A stretch of 64,000 bases of DNA from positions 69,578 through 133,577 of the forward strand of contig JAUWMZ010000003.1 in NCBI GenBank assembly GCA_030612885.1. The letters are read 5' to 3'. The notes beneath the pieces were generated by a model that made no database searches, had not been told where the DNA came from, and worked only from the letters and a program-made list of their open reading frames with translations. Source of the stretch: Candidatus Nealsonbacteria bacterium. GTDB taxonomy: Bacteria; Patescibacteriota; Minisyncoccia; Minisyncoccales; JAGMDC01. The translations under genes and the position numbers were made by a program. Positions 3,153 to 41,742 of this stretch are shown piece after piece; position 1 is the stretch's first letter, and every line of letters starts with the position of its first letter.

Positions 3153-3355
3153 ACATTGGAGAAACTTATAAATTTAAAGACAATAAAGTAAACAAAACCT
3201 GGATTATTCATCCTGTTTTAGCTGAACTAAAAGAATTACCTGATATAAGGCTAGATTGGGAACATACAGAATATAAATGGATTAAGCCGAAAGAGTTAAA
3301 GAAATTTGATATAGTTACTAATCTTGAAAAAAGTTACGAGAAGGCAATATTATAA
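3153..3355 (+). pseudogene. 3' fragment of a NUDIX hydrolase gene (paralogue of 25465..25965)
   Basis: Encodes ...IGETYKFKDNKVNKTWIIHPVLAELKELPDIRLDWEHTEYKWIKPKELKKFDIVTNLEKSYEKAIL. The full gene has ...IGETYKFIDSQINKTWIIYPVLVGLNRLPEIKLDWEHTEYKWIKPEQLKEFDIVTNLEKSFKKAAL. The two share several perfect 24-32 nt DNA blocks. The Nudix box is missing, and the N-terminus of ORF 3092..3355 is read out of the GC-rich hairpin cluster. Confidence 0.85.
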
Positions 3356-6875: not shown

Positions 6876-6916
6876 CCCGAGGCAGCGATATCGCTGCCTT
6901 GGGTTTTTATTTTTTA
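6876..6916 (+). terminator. Strong GC hairpin plus T-run (intrinsic-terminator-like) with no upstream + strand gene
   Basis: CCCGAGGCAGCGAT|ATCGCTGCCTTGGG followed by TTTTTATTTTTT. A possible promoter (TTGAAT 6824-6829, N16, TATACT 6846-6851) lies about 25 nt upstream. Confidence 0.5.
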
Positions 6917-6946
6917 TTGATAAAAACCCAAAAATGAGTTAAATTA
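6916..6946 (+). promoter_or_regulatory. Promoter module ATTGATAAAAACCCAAAAATGAGTTAAATTA (copy 1)
   Basis: TTGATA-N17-TAAATT. A 31-nt perfect duplicate lies at 9513-9543. Confidence 0.65.
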
Positions 6947-6964: not shown

Positions 6965-7087
6965 ATGACAAAATATTTAACACAGGAAGGTTTGAATAAA
7001 ATAAAAAAAGAGCTGGAGTACCTAGAAAAAGTTAGAAGAAAAGAGGTTTCAGAGGAGATAAAACATACTTCTTCTCAAGGTGATTGA
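6965..7087 (+). pseudogene. greA: N-terminal fragment of transcription elongation factor GreA (40 codons, then stop)
   Basis: MTKYLTQEGLNKIKKELEYLEKVRRKEVSEEIKHTSSQGD* matches the GreA N-terminal coiled coil up to the conserved GD. The usual LSENAEY continuation and the C-terminal domain are absent. Confidence 0.75.
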
Positions 7088-7171
7088 CATTGAATAGATT
7101 GGTGTGTGTTAGACATTGAGTGCTTAATAGGTGTTATCGCAAAAATGGCGGTTTTTTGGTAGAATAAAATA

Positions 7172-7459
7172 ATGAAAATTTACATAGAAAAAAATAAATT
7201 TAATGAAAATTTATATAGCTTTATGAGAGATTGCGGATATATGCCTTTTCATAACAGCTATATAAGGCCTTTGGCTCCAAGCGGTTATCCACGGTTCCAT
7301 ATTTATATAAGCGAAACAGATGAGAAATATATTTTCAATCTGCATCTTGACCAAAAAAAACCAAGTTATGGCAAAGAAAGCGCGCATAGCGGAGAATATG
7401 ACGGACAGGTTGTGGGACAAGAAGCAAGAAGAATACAAAACAACATTGACCAATCTTAA
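7172..7459 (+). CDS. Hypothetical protein (95 aa)
   Basis: ORF starts 6 nt after an extended -10 (TGGTAGAAT, 7158-7165), so it is probably leaderless. No motif recognised. Confidence 0.45.
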   Translation: MKIYIEKNKFNENLYSFMRDCGYMPFHNSYIRPLAPSGYPRFHIYISETDEKYIFNLHLDQKKPSYGKESAHSGEYDGQVVGQEARRIQNNIDQS

Positions 7460-7578: not shown

Positions 7579-8610
7579 ATGGATATAAAAGCATTAATCT
7601 TAAAACACCTAAAAAAGAATAAGAAAGTTAAAGTTGCTGATATAGTTAAAGCAACTGGGTTTTCGCGCGCCTATATCAATAGATTCTTTAGGGAATTAGT
7701 AAATCAAGAAAAAATTGCTTTAATTGGAAAAGCAAACAGGGCTTATTATATTGAAGCTAAAAAGGGTGTTGTCCGAAAAACAAAAAGAGAAATTTTAAGT
7801 ATAAAACGGATTCTTAAGAACAAAAATCTTTCTGAATCTGATATTTTAGACCAAATTAAAAAAGATTGCGGGATATTTTTGGATTTACCAAAAAATATCG
7901 TTTCCATTTTGGATTACGCTTTTACTGAGATGTTAAACAATGCTATTGAACATTCTAATTCAAAAGAAATAGTTGTTATAATGGAAAAAAATAAACTTAG
8001 CGTCAATTTTGAAGTGATTGATTTTGGAATAGGTATTTTTAATAATTTGATGGCAAAAAGAGGATTAAAAAACGAATTAGAAGCAATTCAGGACCTTTTA
8101 AAAGGAAAACAAACCACTGTTCCTAAAGAACATACAGGCGAGGGCATTTTTTTTACTTCAAAAGTAGCTGACAGATTAATTATTAATAGCTCAACCAAGA
8201 AATTGATTATTGACAACCAGCTCAATGATATTTTTATTAAAGACATAAAAGCAATTAAAGGAACAAAAGTGCGGTTTGAAATTGGCAAAAAAGCTATGCA
8301 AAATTTAAATGCTGTATTTAGAAAATTTGCTGGAGATACATTTGAATTTAGTAAAACCGAAGTGACGGTCGACCTTTATCAGATGAATAATGTTTTCATT
8401 TCGCGTTCTCAAGCACGAAGAGTTCTTAGCGGATTGGACAAATTTAGAACAATAATTATTGATTTTAAGAATATTGAGGCCATTGGTCAATCTTTTGCTG
8501 ATGAAGTTTTTAGAGTTTGGCAAAGTCATCATTCAGGGATTGATATTAAGTATAAAAACGCTAATGAAAATGTGCTATTTATGATTAAACGAGCACAGGT
8601 TAAAAATTAA
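7579..8610 (+). CDS. Three-domain protein: N-terminal winged-HTH, GHKL (HATPase_c) ATPase, C-terminal STAS-like DUF4325
   Basis: wHTH: VKVADIVKATGFSRAYINRFFRELV. GHKL N box EMLNNAIEHS, G1 DFGIGIF, G2 GEGIFF. C-terminus SRSQARRVLSGLDKFRTIIIDFKNIEAIGQSFADEVFRVW is typical of DUF4325. Confidence 0.7.
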   Translation: MDIKALILKHLKKNKKVKVADIVKATGFSRAYINRFFRELVNQEKIALIGKANRAYYIEAKKGVVRKTKREILSIKRILKNKNLSESDILDQIKKDCGIFLDLPKNIVSILDYAFTEMLNNAIEHSNSKEIVVIMEKNKLSVNFEVIDFGIGIFNNLMAKRGLKNELEAIQDLLKGKQTTVPKEHTGEGIFFTSKVADRLIINSSTKKLIIDNQLNDIFIKDIKAIKGTKVRFEIGKKAMQNLNAVFRKFAGDTFEFSKTEVTVDLYQMNNVFISRSQARRVLSGLDKFRTIIIDFKNIEAIGQSFADEVFRVWQSHHSGIDIKYKNANENVLFMIKRAQVKN

Positions 8611-9455: not shown

Positions 9456-9474
9456 AAAAAGGAAAATTTCCTGG

Positions 9475-9501
9475 AGCGAAACTATTAAGTTTCGCTTTTT
9501 T
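9475..9501 (+). terminator. Rho-independent terminator
   Basis: AGCGAAAC-tattaa-GTTTCGCT followed by TTTTTTG. Confidence 0.7.
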
Positions 9502-9512
9502 GTTGTTAGAAA

Positions 9513-9543
9513 ATTGATAAAAACCCAAAAATGAGTTAAATTA
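9513..9543 (+). promoter_or_regulatory. Promoter module ATTGATAAAAACCCAAAAATGAGTTAAATTA (copy 2)
   Basis: Identical to 6916-6946. The -10 TAAATT ends 6 nt before the ATG at 9549, which implies a leaderless transcript. Confidence 0.65.
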
Positions 9544-9548
9544 AAGTA

Positions 9549-11363
9549 ATGGAGGAAAAGAAAAACAGAATAAAAGACTTACCTAAAATAGAACGACCTA
9601 GAGAAAAATTTCTCAAAAAAGGACCGGAGGCACTTTCAAAAAGTGATCTTTTAGCAATTTTGCTTGGAAGTGGAGTAAAGGGTAAAAATGTTCAAAAACT
9701 TGCGCAACAAATAATCAAAAAATTCGGCAAGGCTTTTTTGAACATTACAGTTGATGATTTGCTGAAAATTTCAGGTATTGGCCAAGTTAAAGCATTGCAA
9801 ATTGCATCAGCAATTTCTTTAGTAAAAAGATTTTATGAAGAAGAAAAAGGGAATGAAATTGTTATAAAAAATTCAAAGGATGTTATTTCTTTGACTTATG
9901 ATTTACGGGACAAGAAAAAGGAATATCTAATCTGTTTATATTTGAATGCAAGAAATGTTTTGATCAAAAAAGAAACAATATCAATCGGCACTCTTGATAA
10001 AAGTTTATTGCACCCAAGAGAGATTTTTTATCCAGCCGTTGAATTGAATTCCGCAAGTATTATTTTGGTACATAATCATCCCACAGGAGACCCAACTCCA
10101 AGCAAAGAAGACAACACAATTGTTGAAAAAATTGTTCAGGCCGGTGAAATAATGGGAATTTCTGTTATAGATTTTATTATTACTGCAAAGAACGGAAATT
10201 ATAGTTTTCATGAAGTCTTAAGAGGGGTTGATGAAAACATAGATTATGTTGCTGAAGGCGTTCAAGTAGGTTTGTTTGACTTTCTCGAAATCAAGAAACC
10301 AACATACGAAATAGATGCAAAAAAAATTAAGGAAAATTATTTTTATATTCCGCAAGTAAAACAAAATCATATTCAATTGCATAATCGTAGGTATATTGGC
10401 AGTAAACATAAATTAATAGAATGGATTTTTTCTGTTATCAATAAAGAGTGCGGAGGAGATTCTTTTGCTGATGTTTTTGCAGGAACGGGAATTGTGTCAG
10501 CTATAGCTACAAAACATTTTAAAAAAATTATACTAAACGATTTTCTTTATTCTAATTATGCAATATACCAAGCTTTTTTTGGAAATGGCGAATGGAATAA
10601 AAATAAAATAGACAACATTATCAAAGATTATAACAATATTTATGGAGAGGATTTAGAAGACAATTATTTTTCTAATTATTTTGGTGGTAAATATTTTAGC
10701 TATAATTCATCAAAAATTATTGGTTTCGTCAGGGAGAATATAGAGAAAAATAAAAATAATTTAACAAGCAGAGAATATTATATGCTTATTGCATCTTTGT
10801 TATATACGGTCGATAAAATTGCTAATACTGTCGGACATTACGATGCATATTTTAAAAAAGATTCTATAAATGATGATTTCTTTATGAAACCGATTGACCC
10901 TGTTAATGTTGATGAAATATCTATTTTTAGAGAAGATACGAACCTTTTGGTAAAAAAAATAAAAGCAGATGTAGTTTATATTGATCCGCCCTATAACTCC
11001 AGACAATATAGCCGGTTTTATCATGTACTTGAAACACTTACTAAATGGGATAAACCAAAATTACATGGAGTTGCATTAAAACCAGATCCAGAAAATATGA
11101 GTGATTATTGTAGAATCAATGCAAAGACTAGGTTTGCGGAACTTGTAAGGTATATTGATGCTCGGTATTTGGTTGTTTCATATAATAATACATATGACTC
11201 CAAAAGTAATTCATCAAAAAATAAAATTACGCTTCAAGAAATTGAAAAAATCTTACAGAGGAAAGGCAAAACTAAAGTCTTTGAAAAGGATTATAAGTAC
11301 TTTAACGCTGGAAACACAAATTTTAATAACCACAAAGAATATTTATTTGTCACTAAAGTTTAA
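9549..11363 (+). CDS. Fusion protein: full-length RadC-like JAB/MPN domain (about aa 1-225) plus a D12-class N6-adenine DNA methyltransferase
   Basis: RadC part: HhH ISGIGQVKALQI and JAMM motif LVHNHPTGDPTPSKED. MTase part: RRYIGSKHKL, FAGTGIVS (AdoMet site) and VVYIDPPYNSRQYSRFYH (DPPY catalytic motif). The frame is continuous across the junction. Confidence 0.8.
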   Translation: MEEKKNRIKDLPKIERPREKFLKKGPEALSKSDLLAILLGSGVKGKNVQKLAQQIIKKFGKAFLNITVDDLLKISGIGQVKALQIASAISLVKRFYEEEKGNEIVIKNSKDVISLTYDLRDKKKEYLICLYLNARNVLIKKETISIGTLDKSLLHPREIFYPAVELNSASIILVHNHPTGDPTPSKEDNTIVEKIVQAGEIMGISVIDFIITAKNGNYSFHEVLRGVDENIDYVAEGVQVGLFDFLEIKKPTYEIDAKKIKENYFYIPQVKQNHIQLHNRRYIGSKHKLIEWIFSVINKECGGDSFADVFAGTGIVSAIATKHFKKIILNDFLYSNYAIYQAFFGNGEWNKNKIDNIIKDYNNIYGEDLEDNYFSNYFGGKYFSYNSSKIIGFVRENIEKNKNNLTSREYYMLIASLLYTVDKIANTVGHYDAYFKKDSINDDFFMKPIDPVNVDEISIFREDTNLLVKKIKADVVYIDPPYNSRQYSRFYHVLETLTKWDKPKLHGVALKPDPENMSDYCRINAKTRFAELVRYIDARYLVVSYNNTYDSKSNSSKNKITLQEIEKILQRKGKTKVFEKDYKYFNAGNTNFNNHKEYLFVTKV

Positions 11364-11365
11364 AT

Positions 11366-12271
11366 ATGGATAGCAAAATCAAAAGATCCCCGCTATTCTA
11401 TGTCGGAGATAAATACAAGATAATGAGACAGATTAAAAATTTATTTCCTAAAGAAATAAATAATTTTTACGAGCCTTTTGTTGGTGGTGGTACTGTGTTT
11501 TTGAATATTGAGGCCAAAAAGTATTATCTAAATGATATAGATAAAAACCTTATTAATATACACAAGTTTTTAATTAAAAATTCAAGCAATCCAAATGAAT
11601 TTTTCAGAAGTATAAAAAAAATAATACGTAAATACAAATTATCTAGATCATATGAAGAGGATATAATTCCGGCTCGACTAAAGAAGAAATGGAAAAAAAC
11701 CTATTTTGCTAGATTCAACAAAGAAGGTTATGGAAAATTGAGGGAATGTGTCAATAAAAATAAAAAGAACGACCACTTAATTTTGTATGTTTTGCTTATC
11801 TACGGCTTTAATAGAATGCTGAGATTTAATGGCGGAGGTAAATTTAATCTTCCCGTGGGCAACGTTGATTTTAATAAAAACGTTGTTAATGCTCTAAATA
11901 ATTATTTTGATTTTGTGCATGGTAAAAAAATATCATTTTGCTCAAAAGATTTTAGAGGTTTTTTTTCTGGAAGAAAATACCTGAAAAACGATTTTGTTTA
12001 TTTGGATCCACCTTATTTAATTTCAGCAAGTGAATATAATAAATTTTGGGATAAAAAAGCTGAATATGATTTATTAAGTTCGATTGACGACTTGAATAAA
12101 AAAAGCGTTAAGTTTGCGTTGTCGAATATAACTCATTATAACGGGAATAAAAATAACTTGTTGATTAAATGGATGAAAAAATATAAAGCATATAAAATAA
12201 ATAGTAATTATATTAGCTATCACGACAATAAGAAAAAGAAAATCAAAGAGGTGTTAATTACTAATTCTTAA
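11366..12271 (+). CDS. Dam-family (D12 class) N6-adenine DNA methyltransferase
   Basis: FYVGDKYKIM..., FYEPFVGGGTVF (motif I) and FVYLDPPY (motif IV). Starts 2 nt after the preceding stop. Confidence 0.85.
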   Translation: MDSKIKRSPLFYVGDKYKIMRQIKNLFPKEINNFYEPFVGGGTVFLNIEAKKYYLNDIDKNLINIHKFLIKNSSNPNEFFRSIKKIIRKYKLSRSYEEDIIPARLKKKWKKTYFARFNKEGYGKLRECVNKNKKNDHLILYVLLIYGFNRMLRFNGGGKFNLPVGNVDFNKNVVNALNNYFDFVHGKKISFCSKDFRGFFSGRKYLKNDFVYLDPPYLISASEYNKFWDKKAEYDLLSSIDDLNKKSVKFALSNITHYNGNKNNLLIKWMKKYKAYKINSNYISYHDNKKKKIKEVLITNS

Positions 12272-12274
12272 CTT

Positions 12275-13813
12275 ATGGAGAAACGCCAGTCAGAATATAA
12301 GCCTTTATTATTCACAACGACACTTAGAAATCCCGAAAGATTGAAGTGGTTTTTAGGAGTGTTTAAAAATTATGATGGTAAAATTCTTACTAATGATTTA
12401 GCGAAAGAAATTGCTGGAGAAATAATAAGAATTGGATTGTATACTCCAACAAACTTGAGTGCATCTATAAAAAACAAAATAAAATCAAAAGAGCTTTTAA
12501 CTAATGAAGAAGTTTTAAAAGTTCTAAAAGATAATCCTCAAAATCATAAAGAAGCGGGTTTTAGCAAAGGATGGCCATCTAGATTTGATACTTGGTTCAA
12601 AATAGCAAAAGAATTGGGTTTCGTTTATTACAGGATTGGAGAAAAAATTAAATTTTCTGAGATTGGCTTAAAACTCATTAATAACAAGCATCCCGAATTT
12701 GAACAACAAGCATTCCTCAATGCTTTTGTAAAATATCAAAGCAATAATCCACTTAGACGCACATTAAATGAAAATGTCCCATTAATACTTCTACTTGAGG
12801 TAATTTCAAGATTGAATAAAGATAAAAATTTCAACGGAAGTGGTATCTCAAAATTAGAATTGCCATTAGTCATCTTTTGGAAAAATAATAATTCAGAAAA
12901 ATTATATCAATTAATAAAGGAGATAAGGAAAAAATACAGCTATAATCCAAGCTGGGAAGTAATCGTTGATATTTGTCTTAATCGAATCATGGAAGGTAAA
13001 TTTAAGAAATTCAATCATAAATCAATTATGATCGATTATCCGGATGAATTTATAAGAAAGATGAGACTCACGGGGTTAATTTCTTTAAGGGGCGGTGGTC
13101 GTTTTATTGATATCAACAAAAATGAACAGAAAAAAGTCAATTATGCTCTTAAAAATTATTCTAAATATAAGAAATACAAAACAGAAAAGGAATATTTTGT
13201 GTACATGGCAAGAATTGATAAGAGTTTGATTTTATCTGCAGCTAAGCCGGTAAGCGCGGATGAGAGAGACAAGTTTTTAGCTAAATGGATTAGTGTTTAT
13301 TCTTGGACTACGATTAAAGAAGAAATAATCAACTTGGCTAGAAAAAAATTAACAAAAGATGATATTCTAAAATATCTTTCAAATCCGATACGATTGGAAT
13401 TTCTTGTTGCCTTAGCAGTTAAATCCAAATTTTCAAATATAAAGGTTATACCTAATTATCCTTATGACGATGAGGGATTGCCGACCTCAACTGCTGGCGG
13501 TATAGGCGATAAAGGTGATATTGAATGCTACGAGGACATCAATAGAATTTTAATTGAGGTAACTATGTCCGAAGGAAGAACGCAAACAGTTATGGAGATA
13601 TGGCCCATAACCAGACATTTGGAAGAATTTAGTAAAAATAATGAGAACTCCATGTGTTATTTTGTTGCACCTAGTATATTTAAGGACTCGCAGAGACAAA
13701 TTGAATACGTGAAAGATAAAGAAAATCTTTTTATTCTGCCGAAAACTATTGAAGAATTTTTGAAACATATAAGTAACAGAGAAAAATTATTTTGTACCAT
13801 TAGTTCAAAATAA
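12275..13813 (+). CDS. Putative type II restriction endonuclease (possibly AlwI-like family)
   Basis: 512-aa ORF 3 nt downstream of two MTases. The C-terminal AGGIGDKGDIECYEDINRILIEVTMSEGRTQ has a D...E-x-T/K nuclease-like core. The AlwI-family assignment is from memory of the family pattern only. Confidence 0.5.
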   Translation: MEKRQSEYKPLLFTTTLRNPERLKWFLGVFKNYDGKILTNDLAKEIAGEIIRIGLYTPTNLSASIKNKIKSKELLTNEEVLKVLKDNPQNHKEAGFSKGWPSRFDTWFKIAKELGFVYYRIGEKIKFSEIGLKLINNKHPEFEQQAFLNAFVKYQSNNPLRRTLNENVPLILLLEVISRLNKDKNFNGSGISKLELPLVIFWKNNNSEKLYQLIKEIRKKYSYNPSWEVIVDICLNRIMEGKFKKFNHKSIMIDYPDEFIRKMRLTGLISLRGGGRFIDINKNEQKKVNYALKNYSKYKKYKTEKEYFVYMARIDKSLILSAAKPVSADERDKFLAKWISVYSWTTIKEEIINLARKKLTKDDILKYLSNPIRLEFLVALAVKSKFSNIKVIPNYPYDDEGLPTSTAGGIGDKGDIECYEDINRILIEVTMSEGRTQTVMEIWPITRHLEEFSKNNENSMCYFVAPSIFKDSQRQIEYVKDKENLFILPKTIEEFLKHISNREKLFCTISSK

Positions 13814-13861: not shown

Positions 13862-14725
13862 ATGTCATATCCTAAAACAATTAAAATTTATCTTGTTGAT
13901 GGTAAACCTGATGGAATTAAGACAGCAGAATTAAGTAATTGGGTGGGTAAAGCTATTGCTATACCGAGAAATAAGTTGAAAGATGTTAAAGAAAGAAAAG
14001 AATGTAATCAACCATCAATTTATTTTCTATTTGGTAAAGAAGACGAAAAATCTGTTTTGCCATATGTTTATATTGGTGAAGCTGAAATTTTATGGAAAAG
14101 ATTGATAACCCATGAAAGTAGCAAAGATTTTTGGCAAATGGCTGTTGCTTTTGTAAGTAAAGATAATAATTTAACTAAAGCTCATATTAAATATTTGGAG
14201 AGTTGTTGTTTGGGTATAGCAAAGTCAATATCTCGTTGTCTTTTGCAAAACACTTCTGAAAGTGCCTTGCCAAATCTTTCAGAATCCGACGTCTCTGAAA
14301 TGCAAGAATATTTGGATAATTTAAAAATCCTTTTAGCCAGTTTGGGATACCCTATTCTGCAAGAACCTGCGACAAGACAAGATAGAGACGTTGGAGTATT
14401 GCTTTATTGCCGAAGGAAAGGAGCCATAGGGATAGGTAGAATGACTAATGAGGGATTTATAGTTTATAAAAGTTCAACTGCCAGTACACAAATTAGTGAT
14501 GCTGTTAGAAAAAGAAATGAACACATTATTTCCTCTTTATTGCAATCCGGTCATATTAGTGAAATTTCAGATAAATTATTTAAGTTTGAAAAAGACTATC
14601 TTTTTAATAGTCCAAGTGCGGCTTCGGATTTAATAACGGGTAATTCTACGAGTGGCTGGGTATTATGGAAAACCAAACAAGGTAAAATTTTAAGGGAAGT
14701 AGAAAAGGATAAATTGAAAAATTAA
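13862..14725 (+). CDS. GIY-YIG nuclease domain protein with C-terminal DUF4357
   Basis: N-terminal SIYFLFG...YVYIGEAEILWKRL is GIY-YIG-like. C-terminal FNSPSAASDLITGNSTSGWVLWKT is typical of DUF4357. Confidence 0.7.
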   Translation: MSYPKTIKIYLVDGKPDGIKTAELSNWVGKAIAIPRNKLKDVKERKECNQPSIYFLFGKEDEKSVLPYVYIGEAEILWKRLITHESSKDFWQMAVAFVSKDNNLTKAHIKYLESCCLGIAKSISRCLLQNTSESALPNLSESDVSEMQEYLDNLKILLASLGYPILQEPATRQDRDVGVLLYCRRKGAIGIGRMTNEGFIVYKSSTASTQISDAVRKRNEHIISSLLQSGHISEISDKLFKFEKDYLFNSPSAASDLITGNSTSGWVLWKTKQGKILREVEKDKLKN

Positions 14726-16619: not shown

Positions 16620-17102
16620 ATGGAGAAAGCAGAATTTATATTAGCAGTGAAAAATATATTCAATAGTTGCCGGAATCTATCTAAACTTTCGGGCGGGGTA
16701 CGCAAATTTACTCCTGACGGCAGGATGGTTGGTGATATCGGAGAGGTAATAGCTAGTGTTTTTTATCGAGTTAACTTACATAACGTGGGTCGTCATGATT
16801 GGGATGGTGTCTATAACAGTAAAAACGTACAGATAAAAGCAACTGGTGGAGATAGTACATATCTTAGAGAACCGCCTAAAGATGGTTTTGCTGATGGTTT
16901 ATTGATGGTATTTAAGATTGATCGAGAAAGTGGTAAATATGAACTTATTTACAACGGGGATATTCAACGCGTTTGGGATGCGTTAAATAGCATAAATACC
17001 GATAGGACTGGCTCTAAGATGATTTCGTTAAATCGTCTTAGAAAATTACAAAAATTTGTCTATCCTGAAAATATTATTCCAGTCAGGCAAAAAATGGGTT
17101 AA
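16620..17102 (+). CDS. Small PD-(D/E)xK-like (restriction-endonuclease-fold, DUF6998-like) protein
   Basis: GDIGEVIA ... HDWDG ... VQIKAT resembles an E / D / (E/Q)xK arrangement. The gene is visibly more G+C-rich than its neighbours. Confidence 0.4.
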   Translation: MEKAEFILAVKNIFNSCRNLSKLSGGVRKFTPDGRMVGDIGEVIASVFYRVNLHNVGRHDWDGVYNSKNVQIKATGGDSTYLREPPKDGFADGLLMVFKIDRESGKYELIYNGDIQRVWDALNSINTDRTGSKMISLNRLRKLQKFVYPENIIPVRQKMG

Positions 17103-17915: not shown

Positions 17916-18533
17916 ATGAAAGAAAAAATCAAGAGATGGTTTAGTTGGCTTTGGAAAAAATTTTTGGGGAAAAAGGAAATTAAGAAATTATCAAATGAAG
18001 AATTCAAGCTTCTTGTTGGTACTTTAAGCTTTACTTATCGGCAATTCTGTTTTAATAAAATTGGGCATAAAAAAATTGACGATAAACCTTGGGAAAATTT
18101 TAAAGACATATGGAGTCATATTCTTATTAGTTGGCGACATTACTATTTAATAAATTTAGCAAAAATTTTTGATAAAAAATCCTATAATACGAGGAATGGC
18201 AAGAAAATCACTCTTTCTATTTTTCGTGCTATACCCAAATCTAAATTTAGTGCAGACGATAAGGAAACTATTAAAAAAATTATGCGAGTTCGGAATGAAA
18301 TGTTAGCTCATCTTGAAGCAGAAAAAGTATTACAGGGAAAAAGGAACGAAGAAGCTTACGGATTGGACTTTGAAGGCAAGCAGATTGAATCTCTAATTGG
18401 CAACACTTTTAAATTGCTTAATCAGATAAGATGGGATTATGGCTTTCCTTATGAATTAAATCAACGCCAACAAAAAAATGATGCTGAAAAAGAATTTGAT
18501 AAGTGGTATAAGGTTTTTAAAGAAGCACAATAG
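17916..18533 (+). CDS. HEPN-like (AbiU2-type) protein candidate
   Basis: MRVRNEMLAHLE contains the Rx4-6H HEPN signature (R-N-x-x-x-A-H). Alpha-helical, 205 aa. Confidence 0.4.
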   Translation: MKEKIKRWFSWLWKKFLGKKEIKKLSNEEFKLLVGTLSFTYRQFCFNKIGHKKIDDKPWENFKDIWSHILISWRHYYLINLAKIFDKKSYNTRNGKKITLSIFRAIPKSKFSADDKETIKKIMRVRNEMLAHLEAEKVLQGKRNEEAYGLDFEGKQIESLIGNTFKLLNQIRWDYGFPYELNQRQQKNDAEKEFDKWYKVFKEAQ

Positions 18534-18613: not shown

Positions 18614-19339
18614 ATGGAAAACAAAAAGAATTTATTAAAGAATTTGTTAGGGTTGTTTATTGGATTTTTGGTTGTTTTATTTTATCTGTTTGGAGTAGAT
18701 TTTTATCAGGACCAGTCATATACTTTGGAGACAGAAGAGGTTGAAGTCCAGGTAGAAAGAGTAATTGACGGAGACACAATCCAAGTTAGGGAACTTCAAA
18801 GTGATGAGGTTTTTAATGTTCGCTATTTGGGAATTGATACTCCAGAGCTTGAGGGTCAGGATTATGAATCTTGCTTTGCGTCACAGGCGACAGAGAGAAA
18901 TGAGGACCTGGTTTTAGATAAAAAAGTGATTTTGGAATTTGATATTGATAAATATGATAGATTTGGCAGAACCCTGGCTTATGTTTATACTTTAGATGAA
19001 TTTGGCGAAAAGCAAACCTTTGTTAATCTTGAACTTTTGCAAGAAGGTTATGCCAGATTTTATCTTGATAAACAAAATACTCTTTATCAGGATGAATTTG
19101 TTCAAGCAGTTCTCACAGCTCAGGAAGATTTTTTAGGGATTTGGGGTTCTTGCGGGGAAGCAAGTTTTGACGTAAAATGTATGATTAAGGGTAATATAGA
19201 TCGTCTGGGTCAAAAATATTATCATCTTCCTGGAGATAAATATTATTCTTCTACCAAAATTAATCCCCTTAAAGAGGACCACTGGCTCTGTACCATTGAA
19301 GAGGCAGAGGCCAAAAACTTCCATAGAGCCCTTCAATGA
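18614..19339 (+). CDS. Membrane-anchored thermonuclease (SNase/micrococcal nuclease family)
   Basis: N-terminal TM helix. VIDGDTIQV, YLGIDTPE and DRFGRTLAYVY are SNase motifs. The C-terminal CMIKGNIDRLGQKYYHLPGDKYYSSTKI...WLCTIEEAEAKNF is the conserved Cys-containing tail. Confidence 0.9.
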   Translation: MENKKNLLKNLLGLFIGFLVVLFYLFGVDFYQDQSYTLETEEVEVQVERVIDGDTIQVRELQSDEVFNVRYLGIDTPELEGQDYESCFASQATERNEDLVLDKKVILEFDIDKYDRFGRTLAYVYTLDEFGEKQTFVNLELLQEGYARFYLDKQNTLYQDEFVQAVLTAQEDFLGIWGSCGEASFDVKCMIKGNIDRLGQKYYHLPGDKYYSSTKINPLKEDHWLCTIEEAEAKNFHRALQ

Positions 19340-19994: not shown

Positions 19995-20846
19995 ATGAAA
20001 AAATCTATTTATGTAATTAATTTCAGAGGGGAAAGAAAGCCGTTTTCTTTAAGGAAAGTTTACCGGGGAGCCAGGAAAGTGGGCGCTTCAAAGAAATTGG
20101 CTCAAGAGATTAGCCAAGTTATTCAAATGGAGGCCTATCCCGGTATCAAAACCTTAGAGATTTTTAAGAGGATAAAAGAACTTTTAAATCGCGAATCCCT
20201 TAAATTAGGAATAAAATTTTCTTTAAAAGAAGGAATGAAAAAATTGGGGCCCAGCGGTTTTCCCTTTGAGAAATTTATTGGAGAAATTTTCTTCAGACAG
20301 GGATATGAGGTTAAATTAAATCAATATCTTCAGGGCGATTGCTTGAAATATGAAATTGATTTTTTAGCCAAAAAAGGAAATTTGCTTTATGTCGGCGAGT
20401 GCAAATTCAGACATTTATTGGAAGAAGGGCGGGTTCATTCAGAAACTGCTTTGGCTTATTTGGCTAAAACTTTAGATATAAGGAAAGGAAATGTACTTAA
20501 GAGAAAAGAGTTTAATGGCTTTGATGTAAGGCCTATTTTGGTTACTAACGCTAAATTTACCAAGTCAGCGGCTAAATATTCAAGATGCGCAGGGATTGAG
20601 CTTCTGGGCTGGAAATGTCCTAAATCAGGAGGCCTGGAATATATAATTGATAAAAACGGTTTTTATCCTATAACTATTTTGCCTTCTTTAAAGAAAGATT
20701 TAGCTGAGGTTTTTATCAAGAGAAAAATGGTTTTAGCAAAAGATGTTTTAAAAATTAATCCTCAAAAATTTTCAGAGCAAACAGGAATCCCTGAAAAAAA
20801 CTTAAATTCTTTAATAAAAGAAGCTAAAATTTTATTTGAAGCATAA
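19995..20846 (+). CDS. ATP-cone domain fused to an Mrr-like restriction endonuclease domain
   Basis: N-terminal ATP-cone-like YVINFRGERKPFSLRKVYRGARKVG. Centre GFPFEKFIGEIFFRQGYEV...YEIDFLAKKGNLLYVGECKFR is a D...E-x-K core. Confidence 0.65.
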   Translation: MKKSIYVINFRGERKPFSLRKVYRGARKVGASKKLAQEISQVIQMEAYPGIKTLEIFKRIKELLNRESLKLGIKFSLKEGMKKLGPSGFPFEKFIGEIFFRQGYEVKLNQYLQGDCLKYEIDFLAKKGNLLYVGECKFRHLLEEGRVHSETALAYLAKTLDIRKGNVLKRKEFNGFDVRPILVTNAKFTKSAAKYSRCAGIELLGWKCPKSGGLEYIIDKNGFYPITILPSLKKDLAEVFIKRKMVLAKDVLKINPQKFSEQTGIPEKNLNSLIKEAKILFEA

Positions 20847-20856
20847 TTAAAAATAT

Positions 20857-21876
20857 ATGGAGGAACAACAAAGAATTCAAAGGTTTTTACAAGAATTTTC
20901 TAAAAAATTAGCAGAAAAATTTAATAAAGATTTGGATTTTATTTTGCTGTTTGGCAGTGCGGCAAGAGGGGAGTGGAAAAGAGGAATAAGCGATGTGGAC
21001 TTGATAATTCAGGTCAAAAAACTGGAATCAGTGAAAGAGGTAAAAGAATATACAGACAAGATATTTTGGAAATTAGATGAGAAATATGATACTAAACTCA
21101 AAGAATCCTGCTCTGTAGGCGATAAAAAAGATGAAGTTAAAAAGGTATTAGAAAAGACCAAACTTTATGTCCCATATGAAATTTTCGGGCCAGCAGACAT
21201 AGATTGGGTAAACGGCAAAATAAAGAGGAAGGACTTATCACTGGGAGCAAAGTTAGTGGCTCCCCAATCTATGCTCTTTAAGAAAATGAAATACGAGGGC
21301 AAGATTTTATGGGGAAGGGATGTAAGAAAAATAATTCAGGCTAAGGCAAACTGGTGGGAGAAATTCAAAGCCATTTTAATACCATACCATATCGCCCTTT
21401 CTTCTGTTTTAGGGGCTTTATTTGTTCCAAAAATTTGCTTGAAAATGGCTGATAAAGCGGCTATTTACTCCATAGAATCTGTTTTGTTCTTTTTAGACAA
21501 ACCAATTGGAGGGGGCATAAAAAAAGCTACAGAAAAAATAGAAAAAGAAATAAAGAGAAAAGTTAGATATAGGCATAGTTTCTTGGGAACTATGGAAATT
21601 GATTTAGTATTAAATTTTGATTATCAAAAATTATTGAATTTTAATTTTGCAAAAGAAGCTATAGAGCTTAAATACAACTGGGTAGAGCAATCCAAAAAAT
21701 TTGACAGATGGAAAACCTTGAAATTTTGCTGCAGGTCTCTGCTTTTCGTGAATACTATGAACTGGTATGCTATATTCAAAGCAGACAGACATCGTATAAC
21801 CTTAAAGCTGTTATTTGTTTTTAGGACAATCCTATTGTTTTTAATAATCTGGTTGTATTTTCGTTATTTTAGATAA
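20857..21876 (+). CDS. Minimal (MNT/KNTase-type) nucleotidyltransferase with a helical, membrane-associated C-terminal region
   Basis: LLFGSAARGEWKRGISDVDLII has the GS...RG...DxD polymerase-beta NTase motif. The C-terminus has hydrophobic helices (LLFVFRTILLFLIIWLYF). Confidence 0.7.
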   Translation: MEEQQRIQRFLQEFSKKLAEKFNKDLDFILLFGSAARGEWKRGISDVDLIIQVKKLESVKEVKEYTDKIFWKLDEKYDTKLKESCSVGDKKDEVKKVLEKTKLYVPYEIFGPADIDWVNGKIKRKDLSLGAKLVAPQSMLFKKMKYEGKILWGRDVRKIIQAKANWWEKFKAILIPYHIALSSVLGALFVPKICLKMADKAAIYSIESVLFFLDKPIGGGIKKATEKIEKEIKRKVRYRHSFLGTMEIDLVLNFDYQKLLNFNFAKEAIELKYNWVEQSKKFDRWKTLKFCCRSLLFVNTMNWYAIFKADRHRITLKLLFVFRTILLFLIIWLYFRYFR

Positions 21877-25346: not shown

Positions 25347-25464
25347 CAGCTGTTGCAGACAGATTGAGTGTTTTCGTTCAAATTTTGAAAGCCGAAAAGT
25401 ATTTATACCAAGTAGGCGTTTTTTTTATTTCCAAAACAACGGTTTTTTGGTAGAATAAGATAAT

Positions 25465-25965
25465 ATGTATAGCAAAGAAGAAAAAATTTTAAACACAATC
25501 AGAGAATTTGCTGAAAAGTTGCCAAAGTTTCAAGACGGAAGAATTGATTATTCAAATTCTGATATTGCTCCAGTGATAACTGTTTTTATAAAGTATGAAT
25601 ATAAAATTCTTTTATTGAAGCGAAGCAATAAAGTCAGAACTTATCAAAGAAAGTGGAATGCTATTGCTGGTTATTTAGACGAATTAAAACCAATTCGTGA
25701 AAAAGCGATAGAAGAAATTCAAGAAGAAACGCAAATCAACAGAGATAATATTTTATCCTTTCACATTGGAGAAACTTATAAATTTATAGATTCTCAAATA
25801 AATAAAACTTGGATTATCTATCCTGTTTTAGTTGGATTAAATAGGTTGCCAGAGATAAAATTAGATTGGGAACATACAGAATATAAATGGATTAAACCAG
25901 AACAATTAAAAGAATTTGATATAGTTACTAATCTTGAAAAAAGTTTTAAAAAAGCAGCACTATAA
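25465..25965 (+). CDS. NUDIX hydrolase
   Basis: AGYLDELKPIREKAIEEIQEETQI is a Nudix-box-like segment. Extended -10 TGGTAGAAT lies at 25449-25456. Confidence 0.7.
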   Translation: MYSKEEKILNTIREFAEKLPKFQDGRIDYSNSDIAPVITVFIKYEYKILLLKRSNKVRTYQRKWNAIAGYLDELKPIREKAIEEIQEETQINRDNILSFHIGETYKFIDSQINKTWIIYPVLVGLNRLPEIKLDWEHTEYKWIKPEQLKEFDIVTNLEKSFKKAAL

Positions 25966-40353: not shown

Positions 40354-41742
40354 ATGAAAAGAATACTATCTATCGATACAACAAAATACATCGGCGAGCA
40401 AGTTAAGTTAGCCGGTTGGATTAACTCGCGGAGAGACCACGGCAAGATTATTTTTATTGACCTCCGGGACAGCTCGGGATTAATACAAATGGTATTTGGA
40501 CAGGAATTTGAAAAAGACATTGTAGCTCAAGAAATGAGGCCGGAATGGATAATTGAAATAGAGGGCATTGTAAGTAAAAGACCAAAAGGAATGGTAAATC
40601 CTAAACTGGCTACTGGAAATATAGAAATAAAAGTAAAAAAATTAAAAGTTTTATCTAAGGCAAAAACCCTGCCTTTTTCTATTGAAAATGACGGCTATGA
40701 AATAAATGAAGAAAAGCGGTTAAAATACCGTTATTTGGATTTAAGGAGAGAACGATTACAGAATAATTTAAAAACTCGCCAAAAAGTAATTCATTTTATG
40801 AGAAATTATCTTATAGAACAAGGTTTTACAGAGATTGAGACACCGCTTTTAACAAAATCAACACCAGAAGGAGCCAGGGATTTTTTGGTGCCGGCTCGCT
40901 TACAGCCCGGAAAATTTTATGCTTTGCCTCAAAGTCCTCAGCAGTATAAGCAGCTTTTAATGGTAGCAGGAATTGAAAAATATTTTCAAATCGCCAGATG
41001 TTTAAGAGATGAAGACCAAAGAGCAGACAGGCAGGCAGAACATACTCAATTGGATATTGAAATGGCATTTACTAATCAGGAAGAAATTTTAAATTTAATA
41101 GAAAAGCTATATATTGACTTAATTAAAAAAATGTTTCCGGAAAAAAGAATTACTAAAATTCCTTTTATTAAAATGACTTATAAGAAAGCGATGGAAAAAT
41201 ACAAAACTGACAAGCCAGACCTTCGGAGGAATAAAAAAAACCCGGATGAATTAGCTTTTGCTTTTATCACTGACTTTCCAATGTTTGAATGGCACCCAGA
41301 GAATAAAACCTGGGGAGCCCAGCATCATCCTTTTACCAAGCCACAGACAGAAGATATCAAAAAAATAAAAAATAATCCAGAGAAAATTTTAGCTTTTCAA
41401 TATGATTTTGTGTTGAATGGCTATGAGATTGGCGGAGGAAGTATCAGAACCACAGATTTAGATATTTTAACTGCTGTTTTTGAAGTTTTAGGTCATAAAA
41501 AACCAGAAATTAAAAAGAAATTCAAAAATTATTTTGAGGCATTTAGCTATGGAGTGCCGCCTCATGGAGGAATTGCTCCAGGAATTGACAGATTCTTGGC
41601 AGTGGTTTTAGACGAACCAAATATTCGGGAAGTAATAGCTTTTCCCAAAACAGGCGATAATCGTGATTTAATGATGGATATTCCCAGCGATGTTACTAAT
41701 GAACAGTTAAAAGAACTACATATTAAAACAACAAAAAAATAA
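40354..41742 (+). CDS. aspS: Aspartate--tRNA ligase, bacterial-type sequence without the GAD insertion domain
   Basis: RRDHGKIIFIDLRDSSGLIQMVF, QSPQQYKQLLMVAGIEKYFQIARCLRDEDQRADRQAEHTQLDIEMAF and GGGSIR...GIDR. Only 462 aa. Confidence 0.92.
   Translation: MKRILSIDTTKYIGEQVKLAGWINSRRDHGKIIFIDLRDSSGLIQMVFGQEFEKDIVAQEMRPEWIIEIEGIVSKRPKGMVNPKLATGNIEIKVKKLKVLSKAKTLPFSIENDGYEINEEKRLKYRYLDLRRERLQNNLKTRQKVIHFMRNYLIEQGFTEIETPLLTKSTPEGARDFLVPARLQPGKFYALPQSPQQYKQLLMVAGIEKYFQIARCLRDEDQRADRQAEHTQLDIEMAFTNQEEILNLIEKLYIDLIKKMFPEKRITKIPFIKMTYKKAMEKYKTDKPDLRRNKKNPDELAFAFITDFPMFEWHPENKTWGAQHHPFTKPQTEDIKKIKNNPEKILAFQYDFVLNGYEIGGGSIRTTDLDILTAVFEVLGHKKPEIKKKFKNYFEAFSYGVPPHGGIAPGIDRFLAVVLDEPNIREVIAFPKTGDNRDLMMDIPSDVTNEQLKELHIKTTKK

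Follow-up and report, generated by a model that had tools for sequence, protein, structure and literature searches.

An AlwI-type restriction-modification cassette from Candidatus Nealsonbacteria whose first methyltransferase carries a complete RadC at its N-terminus

Why should a complete RadC be translated in one chain with a DNA methyltransferase (MTase) at the head of a restriction-modification (R-M) operon? The question is raised by a locus on contig JAUWMZ010000003.1 of a Candidatus Nealsonbacteria bacterium (assembly GCA_030612885.1), of which a stretch of 64,000 nucleotides (nt; positions 69,578 to 133,577 of the forward strand), hereafter called the window, was analysed. All coordinates are positions in the window. 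The locus extends from 9549 to 13813 and consists of three open reading frames (ORFs), all on the plus strand. The first ORF (9549–11363, 604 amino acids, aa) encodes RadC fused to a D12-class N6-adenine MTase (M1), the second (11366–12271, 301 aa) a Dam-family N6-adenine MTase (M2), and the third (12275–13813, 512 aa) an AlwI-family type IIS endonuclease (R). The gaps between them are 2 nt (fusion gene to M2) and 3 nt (M2 to R), in agreement with the tight packing described in a first-pass annotation made from the sequence alone.

Three Pfam domains were recognised in the fusion protein: UPF0758_N, the helix-hairpin-helix (HhH) part of RadC (aa 8–82, 9570–9794; PF20582, E 3.5e-23, the match to HHH itself being weak), the RadC JAB/MPN domain (aa 106–222, 9864–10214; PF04002) and MethyltransfD12 (aa 282–528). 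The JAB part also matched the sole solved RadC structure (PDB 2qlc, E 2.5e-25) and contains the metal-site motif HNHPTGDPTPSKED at aa 175–188 (10071–10112). It is followed by a linker (aa 226 to about 275, 10224–10373) and by M1 (aa 276–604, 10374–11360), which with aa 273–604 matched an unfused 339-aa type II MTase model of PADLOC over the full model length (PDLC03373, E 1.4e-125). M1 displays the motifs RRYIGSK (aa 280–286), FAGTG (aa 310–314, 10476–10490) and DPPY (aa 479–482, 10983–10994); these and the metal-site motif had all been named in the first-pass annotation.

The fusion is genuine and recurrent. Among 5.8 billion clustered proteins searched, more than 120 clusters of 601–611 aa have the same three Pfam domains and 76–85% identity to the fusion protein; they come from Patescibacteria lineages, Atribacterota, Nitrospirota and Desulfobacterota-type metagenome-assembled genomes (MAGs). 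A locus pattern scan of one genome per species delivered 13 fusion loci, hosted by Eubacteriales, Firestonebacteria, Omnitrophota, Saccharibacteria, Gammaproteobacteria (including a closed 1.95-Mb chromosome), Nautiliales, Nitrospirae, Moraniibacteriota and Thioglobus. The same three genes in the same order were found in eight of the 13, and also in loci of Atribacterota and Nitrospirota. In 12 independently assembled loci (the window and 11 others), representing at least nine phyla or classes, RadC and MTase are encoded in one uninterrupted frame, with no stop or frameshift between the halves.

Both halves are under purifying selection. Ratios of non-synonymous to synonymous substitution rates (dN/dS, Nei-Gojobori) were 0.08 for RadC, 0.21 for the linker and 0.075 for the MTase, with dS near saturation in many of the pairs used; the least saturated pair (L009/L010) gave 0.06, 0.20 and 0.09, respectively. 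No ATG occurs from aa 203 to the MTase core in the window fusion. M1 alone therefore cannot be made, and the fusion is obligatory. That a missed stop, a frameshift or a chimeric assembly joined a radC to an MTase gene, leaving an artefact or a pseudogene, is thus of negligible probability and excluded for practical purposes. Coverage of the metagenome assembly behind the window is indeed low (cov 4.7 according to the ENA contig name), but an open frame that recurs in more than 120 clusters and 12 loci from various studies and assemblers, purifying selection on both halves and the lack of an internal ATG for a separate MTase all speak against such an error.

The first-pass annotation had considered the fusion unusual. 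With regard to published work and to sequenced plasmids and phages, that is correct: no paper describing a RadC–MTase fusion or its recurrence in R-M operons was found in a search that had REBASE and many subscription journals outside its reach, and the fusion was absent from 72,556 plasmids, from 50,697 phages and also from viral contigs, where only unfused MTase or RadC halves matched. It is not correct for metagenomes and MAGs, in which the fusion is common and recurs across MTase classes. Public records label such proteins inconsistently, namely as 'DNA repair protein RadC', 'adenine-specific DNA-methyltransferase' or 'DNA (cytosine-5)-methyltransferase 1'.

The fusion protein scored 219.9 bits against the NCBIfam RadC equivalog PRK00024 (cutoff 180) and 209.8 bits against TIGR00608 (cutoff 133.85), and its RadC half is 40–50% identical to stand-alone RadCs. 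The JAB metal site (E...HxH...S..D) is intact, with E158, H175, H177, S185 and D188. Across the sampled family members S185 is nearly invariant and the other four residues are fully so, and all five are retained in every fused RadC examined. An intact metal site combined with an HhH had been proposed for this protein and is confirmed. As judged from its sequence, the RadC half is of the full-length HhH+JAB type and has every feature of the RadC family except the stand-alone state: instead of ending at about 220–230 aa, RadC is joined to a 330-aa MTase with no internal start. YeeS-type RadC-like proteins, found in prophages and integrative and conjugative elements, possess the JAB domain only and have anti-restriction or toxin-antitoxin neighbours. 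The earlier association of this RadC with such mobile-element proteins had to be abandoned, as UPF0758_N/HhH is present, the NCBIfam equivalog threshold is passed, and the genes around it belong to R-M and defence, none being of the ArdB/KlcA type.

An unlikely explanation for a RadC of this kind is that it is a passenger or hostage, which would act as stand-alone RadC does, independently of methylation, and would be fused for co-expression and co-transfer. A selfish cassette could, for example, supply a housekeeping function to small-genome hosts and be retained for that reason. The match above the equivalog cutoff for housekeeping RadC favours this explanation, and so do the reduced genomes of many carriers (candidate phyla radiation/Patescibacteria, SUP05-type symbionts), the flexible and poorly conserved linker and the absence of a second radC from the 64-kb window. 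Co-transfer, however, needs no translational fusion, and the distribution of the RadC module among MTases points in another direction.

Within AlwI-type loci, identity to the window is mosaic along the cassette. The locus L009 is 63% identical to the window in RadC, 88% in M1, 80% in M2 and 83% in R, and L002 is 82, 84, 80 and 54% identical, respectively. In L016 and L018 the pattern is the reverse of that in L009: RadC is 70–75% identical, M1 only 43–46% and R 24–27%, and M2 has no counterpart. Their operon is a different AlwI-family one, in which the RadC–D12 MTase is followed by R (539–605 aa) and then by a beta-class N6_N4 MTase. The switch in identity lies at aa 210–240, the end of the JAB domain, and the linker is the recombination breakpoint in such mosaic relatives. 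These comparisons show, at the level of sequence, an exchange of the RadC module between MTases by recombination at the domain boundary.

The module also occurs on MTases of other chemistry. An exhaustive HMMER search of 1.84 billion representatives was evaluated through its best 150 matches. Among the matches listed, P0122 is a second full-length RadC–D12 fusion (41% identity), and RadC modules 45–62% identical to that of the window reside on the C5 MTases P0129, P0135, P0137 and P0209 and on the N6_N4 MTase P0190. RadC–C5 fusions account for 44 of the best 120 matches to P0137. In the genomic loci, a RadC–C5 fusion stands with a C-protein, an HpaII-family endonuclease and Vsr (L023–L025), with MTaX1 (L022) or with NOV_C and an NgoFVII fragment (L033), and a RadC–N6_N4 fusion precedes an EcoRII-C-family endonuclease (L026, L027). 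The RadC–C5 fusion is the first R-M gene of the HpaII-family/Vsr and MTaX1 operons, in some cases behind a small helix-turn-helix (HTH) protein. RadC was thus found at the N-terminus of three MTase classes (D12 N6-methyladenine (m6A), C5 and N6_N4), and type II R-M operons headed by such a fusion are of at least five kinds (two AlwI variants, HpaII-family, MTaX1 and EcoRII-C). L022 and L033 are located on one 808-kb contig (ENA ERZ25071281 ctg49558), so that a single genome carries two different RadC–C5 fusions. In a neighbour-joining tree, which was calculated without bootstrap support and is hence suggestive, the fused RadCs form two clades, each mixing MTase classes, and both are separate from the stand-alone RadCs of 220–230 aa.

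All this argues against a passenger. The fusion partners belong to three unrelated MTase classes, in every case RadC occupies the N-terminus of the MTase and is never attached to the endonuclease or to some other gene product, two such fusions coexist in one genome, and the fused RadCs group in clades of their own and not with host-type stand-alone RadCs. We infer instead that RadC is probably a selected, portable accessory of R-M MTases and not an accident of this locus. The recurrence also lends more motivation to the coupling of methylation to a processing step that the first-pass annotation had suggested as a possibility.

Two candidates for an unfused pair of radC and M1 among the closest relatives were dismissed: in P0131 unrelated sequence interrupts the JAB domain, and P0130 runs into the end of its contig. 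Other N-terminal domains were seen at the position of RadC. P0128 (773 aa) has an S24 (LexA-type) peptidase domain there, ahead of a tandem D12 MTase, and the plasmid-borne M1 of Lactococcus/Enterococcus (L032, 3764–4000) has an HTH-like N-terminal extension of about 75 residues.

The presence of Vsr in the RadC–C5/HpaII operons bears on a further explanation, in which RadC, like Vsr in C5 systems, would limit damage by repairing a by-product of the MTase, such as an aberrantly alkylated base or a stalled enzyme–DNA complex, by using the deaminase-like fold of JAB on DNA. Repair genes that deal with damage done by the system itself are indeed found in R-M cassettes, Vsr being the case in point, and JAB belongs to a deaminase-like fold whose ancestral role was inferred to be on nucleotides or nucleic acids (PMC3239186). 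Yet Vsr is present besides RadC in the C5 operons, and there is no established by-product common to C5, N4 and N6 chemistry. Damage limitation is purely speculative and very improbable.

No other segment of the fusion protein is as poorly conserved as the linker between the two halves (aa 226 to about 275). In an AlphaFold2 model, aa 226–286 had predicted local distance difference test (pLDDT) values of 24–34 and no secondary structure. The model as a whole was weak (mean pLDDT 58, predicted template modelling score 0.40), and only the result on the disordered linker was used: a flexible or disordered segment of about 50–60 residues is predicted. A long, disordered linker is what a regulatory protease could act on. 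In that case the JAB domain, as a zinc peptidase made DNA-dependent by the HhH domain, would cleave the linker to free M1, or would trim or degrade R during establishment. Biochemically characterised JAB domains are all peptidases or isopeptidases, the structural neighbours that a 2025 review names for a RadC-like domain are metalloproteases only (PMC11981726), and the M1 relative P0128 carries its S24 peptidase domain at the same N-terminal position. On the other hand, Iyer et al. argued that RadC lacks the groove for a ubiquitin tail and favoured nucleic-acid processing on the basis of fusions with DinG helicase, primase and ArdC (PMC3239186, PMC5512222). Neither a ubiquitin-like partner nor a conserved cleavage motif was seen, and the linker sequence is poorly conserved. 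A protease is for these reasons improbable, if somewhat less so than a repair enzyme.

The R-M components of the operon are intact and those of a regular system, and two separate adenine MTases with one nuclease, as first annotated, are borne out by the domain matches. M2, earlier described as Dam-like, reached 146 bits with TIGR00571 (cutoff 115), carries DPPY at 12005–12016 and matched a 318-aa MTase model of PADLOC over its full length (E 8.6e-108). M1 and M2 map to residues 55–407 and 419–714 of a 722-aa tandem MTase model. M.AlwI consists of two MTases in one chain, one per strand (PMC4081073).

The third gene, formerly a putative endonuclease, now has a family. RE_AlwI (PF09491) matched R with 146.7 bits (cutoff 23.1; E 1.3e-42), and the 542-aa type II endonuclease model PDLC03507 of PADLOC was matched over its full length (E 1.7e-126); a 'type II nicking endonuclease' model was additionally matched by the N-terminal half of R. 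The catalytic domain at the C-terminus (aa 367–500) is homologous to the small subunit of R.BspD6I (2p14, E 1.5e-7) and contains the conserved acidic motif D415/E417...E428-V-T430 (13517–13564); four homologues show no variation at D415, E417, E428 and T430. In AlwI-class enzymes each chain bears a single catalytic site, and dimers form transiently (PMC3017599). The Pfam and PADLOC matches and the homology to R.BspD6I support the type IIS-like reading with an asymmetric site that had been offered in the first-pass annotation. A DpnII-like system, its alternative, was rejected because RE_AlwI is the only Pfam match of R, which is not of the DpnII family.

The closest solved relative of M2 is phage T4 Dam (E 1.4e-41). 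Of its six hairpin residues which we take to be GATC readers (F111, S112, M114, R116, P126 and R130), M2 retains F111, M114, R116 and P126 and differs at S112 and R130. A recognition site containing GATC, such as GGATC/GATCC, is plausible from the sequence. GATC is the most depleted 4-mer of the window, with an observed/expected ratio (O/E) of 0.32.

CTAG (O/E 0.30) and AGCCT/AGGCT (0.29) are also strongly under-represented across the whole window. A weak third D12-MTase-like match to the N-terminal motif region of M1 is located at 40384–40554 (tblastn E 0.017). In the near-identical Atribacterota loci L002 and L003–L005, R is present either as 505 aa plus a separate 50-aa ORF or as one 555-aa ORF, which indicates a frameshift or read-through polymorphism at the 3' end.

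The cassette is horizontally mobile. The DNA similarity between the window, L002 (Atribacterota) and L006 (Nitrospirota) is 71–77%. It begins within about 20 nt of the fusion ATG and, between L002 and L006, stops at the R stop codon. The flanks of the three loci are unrelated and consist of housekeeping or toxin-antitoxin genes. Since the similarity across phyla starts at the start codon of the fusion and stops at the stop codon of R, the three ORFs move, on this evidence, as a unit. The window and 12 related loci were free of conjugation and phage genes in their flanks.

Taken together, a mobile AlwI-type cassette with RadC as a tethering or processing accessory of M1 is the best joint reading of the locus, and we give it an even chance of being correct. 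On the model of AlwI and MlyI, a monomer of R would bind the asymmetric site, pair briefly with a second one and cleave a few bases away from the site. M1 and M2 would be the two halves of a tandem M.AlwI-type enzyme, each protecting one strand of the asymmetric site. The HhH/JAB module may tether the MTase to a class of DNA (newly replicated, repaired, incoming or recombining), on which RadC would then perform a metal-dependent nucleic-acid-processing step. As a result, protective methylation would be delivered where unmethylated sites arise, a need that R-M systems of any chemistry and any site would share. Because the association spans m6A, N4-methylcytosine/m6A-beta and 5-methylcytosine enzymes as well as unrelated endonucleases, the role of RadC would be generic to R-M and not bound to one chemistry. 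The affiliation of radC to competence regulons (PMC12378983) fits tethering and processing.

Several points weigh against this reading. In the literature RadC itself has no assigned activity (PMC3239186, PMC11981726). A flexible linker would suit two independent activities just as well, interdomain contacts are not readable from the weak model, and the lack of a second radC in the window counts here as well. The tree of fused and stand-alone RadCs carries no support values, and the list of representatives consists of the best 150 matches. Promoter consensus matches are no more frequent in the window than in shuffled sequence. GGATC (O/E 1.29) and GAGTC (0.89) are not specifically depleted beyond GATC in the window, so the specificity cannot be inferred from k-mer avoidance; by the same token, the cassette is probably a recent arrival in this host.

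A tentative extension, for which the odds are distinctly poorer than for an accessory of M1, is that RadC function as such is tied to methylation. HhH+JAB would be a dedicated, exchangeable accessory of R-M MTases, which may direct or condition methylation on replication-fork, repair or incoming DNA, or clear a methylation-linked obstacle. Stand-alone RadC might do likewise in trans with cellular MTases.

Expression of the cassette seems to depend on sequence of the host. A 31-nt promoter-like repeat at 9513–9543 (plus strand) is an exact duplicate of a first copy at 6916–6946 (plus strand; TTGATA-N17-TAAATT), which is situated 19 nt before a 40-aa N-terminal fragment of greA (6965–7084; PF03449, E 5.5e-11). 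Both copies are preceded by a terminator-like hairpin, the first at 6876–6903 and the second at 9473–9498 (plus strand; 11 pairs and a T run), the latter ending the upstream DUF167 gene. The element at 9513–9543 lies outside the horizontally shared DNA and therefore belongs to the host side. A spacing of 5 nt separates the end of its –10 box from the ATG at 9549, so that a leaderless mRNA is likely, and the operon would be transcribed as such from a host-derived promoter copy. Of the earlier claim that the operon is driven by an exact copy of the promoter in front of the truncated greA, the exact 31-nt duplication is correct; promoter function is suggested by the duplication and the layout, the consensus matches showing no enrichment over shuffles.

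No C-terminal piece of greA was found in the window, and the 166-aa ORF at 25465–25965 was rejected as its remainder, since it encodes a NUDIX protein. Two further repeat pairs suggest local partial duplications: 203 nt with 81% identity at 3153–3355 (in an 87-aa ORF with no Pfam match) and 25763–25965 (the 3' end of the NUDIX gene), and 40 nt, promoter-like, with 83% identity at 7134–7173 and 25425–25464 (just upstream of the NUDIX gene). A family of 26-nt GC-rich hairpin-like repeats (D2; GGGCGAAGTCCGTCCTCGCCC and variants) was observed in six copies between 32010 and 62018, with the core in both orientations.

The surroundings of the cassette look like a defence island. On one side lies a HATPase_c_2+DUF4325 gene (7579–8610); on the other are genes for DUF6998 (16620–17102), HEPN_AbiU2 (17916–18533), SNase (18614–19339), a Mrr_cat-like nuclease (19995–20846) and a nucleotidyltransferase (20857–21876). 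Directly downstream of R, the gene at 13862–14725 matched the PADLOC candidate defence family PDC-S14 (E 8.5e-101); Pfam recognised DUF4357 and, weakly, RAMA in its product. This gene is not conserved beside the cassette elsewhere.

Most bacterial lineages possess a RadC, and a paper of 2008 reportedly bore the title 'RadC, a misleading name?'. In several species radC is induced with competence genes, and its activity is still listed as unknown in reviews of 2025 (among them PMC11981726). The occurrence of RadC on varied R-M MTases is a new clue to its function, and the main interest of the clue is that it can be tested. Recurring over three chemistries and at least five kinds of R-M operon, the fusion makes RadC function measurable in a concrete system: methylation, restriction, establishment of the cassette and DNA uptake are each accessible to an assay with and without the JAB site. 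For R-M biology, it reveals a widespread accessory domain that is hidden by current annotation. The cassette is moreover frequent in uncultured groups such as Patescibacteria, Omnitrophota and Atribacterota and in SUP05-type symbionts, where defence systems are poorly characterised.

In comparison with known systems, the R-M part is an ordinary new member of a well-known family. AlwI is a type IIS enzyme cutting at GGATC 4/5 and belongs to a family with MlyI, PleI, N.BstNBI and BspD6I (REBASE; PMC4081073). R shares the family PF09491 with AlwI and has a C-terminal domain like the small subunit of R.BspD6I, and both systems have two adenine-MTase units, presumably one per strand; here, however, M1 and M2 are separate genes and a whole RadC precedes M1. 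The nearest annotated comparators are unfused, mobile, IS6-flanked cassettes on Firmicutes plasmids, for example of Lactococcus lactis (NZ_CP065734.1) and Enterococcus faecalis (NZ_CP102073.1), which have the same order of DNA adenine methylase, Dam-family MTase and AlwI-family endonuclease. Their M1 is about 54% identical to that of the window and has, instead of RadC, the HTH-like extension of about 75 residues, which has no Pfam match; R is 34% identical to an annotated plasmid AlwI-family enzyme. The DpnII system (DpnM, DpnA and R.DpnII) likewise combines two adenine MTases with one endonuclease, whereas R is of the AlwI family. DpnA methylates incoming DNA, and the idea of RadC–M1 acting on incoming DNA parallels it.

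Published fusions of RadC involve HhH, ArdC, DnaG primase, DinG helicase and polyvalent proteins (PMC3239186, PMC5512222, PMC11981726). The present fusion resembles them in its DNA-acting partner and in its setting of conflict between genomes and mobile elements, and differs in that the partner is an R-M MTase, encoded in a complete type II R-M operon in whose neighbourhood conjugation and phage genes are absent. Unlike the polyvalent proteins of conjugative elements, which have many domains, it has two modules only, and the same absence of conjugation and phage genes marks its flanks. Stand-alone RadC, also named YicR or YsxA (2qlc), has the same UPF0758_N/HhH and JAB build; in the window this build is covalently joined to a DNA MTase inside a mobile R-M operon.

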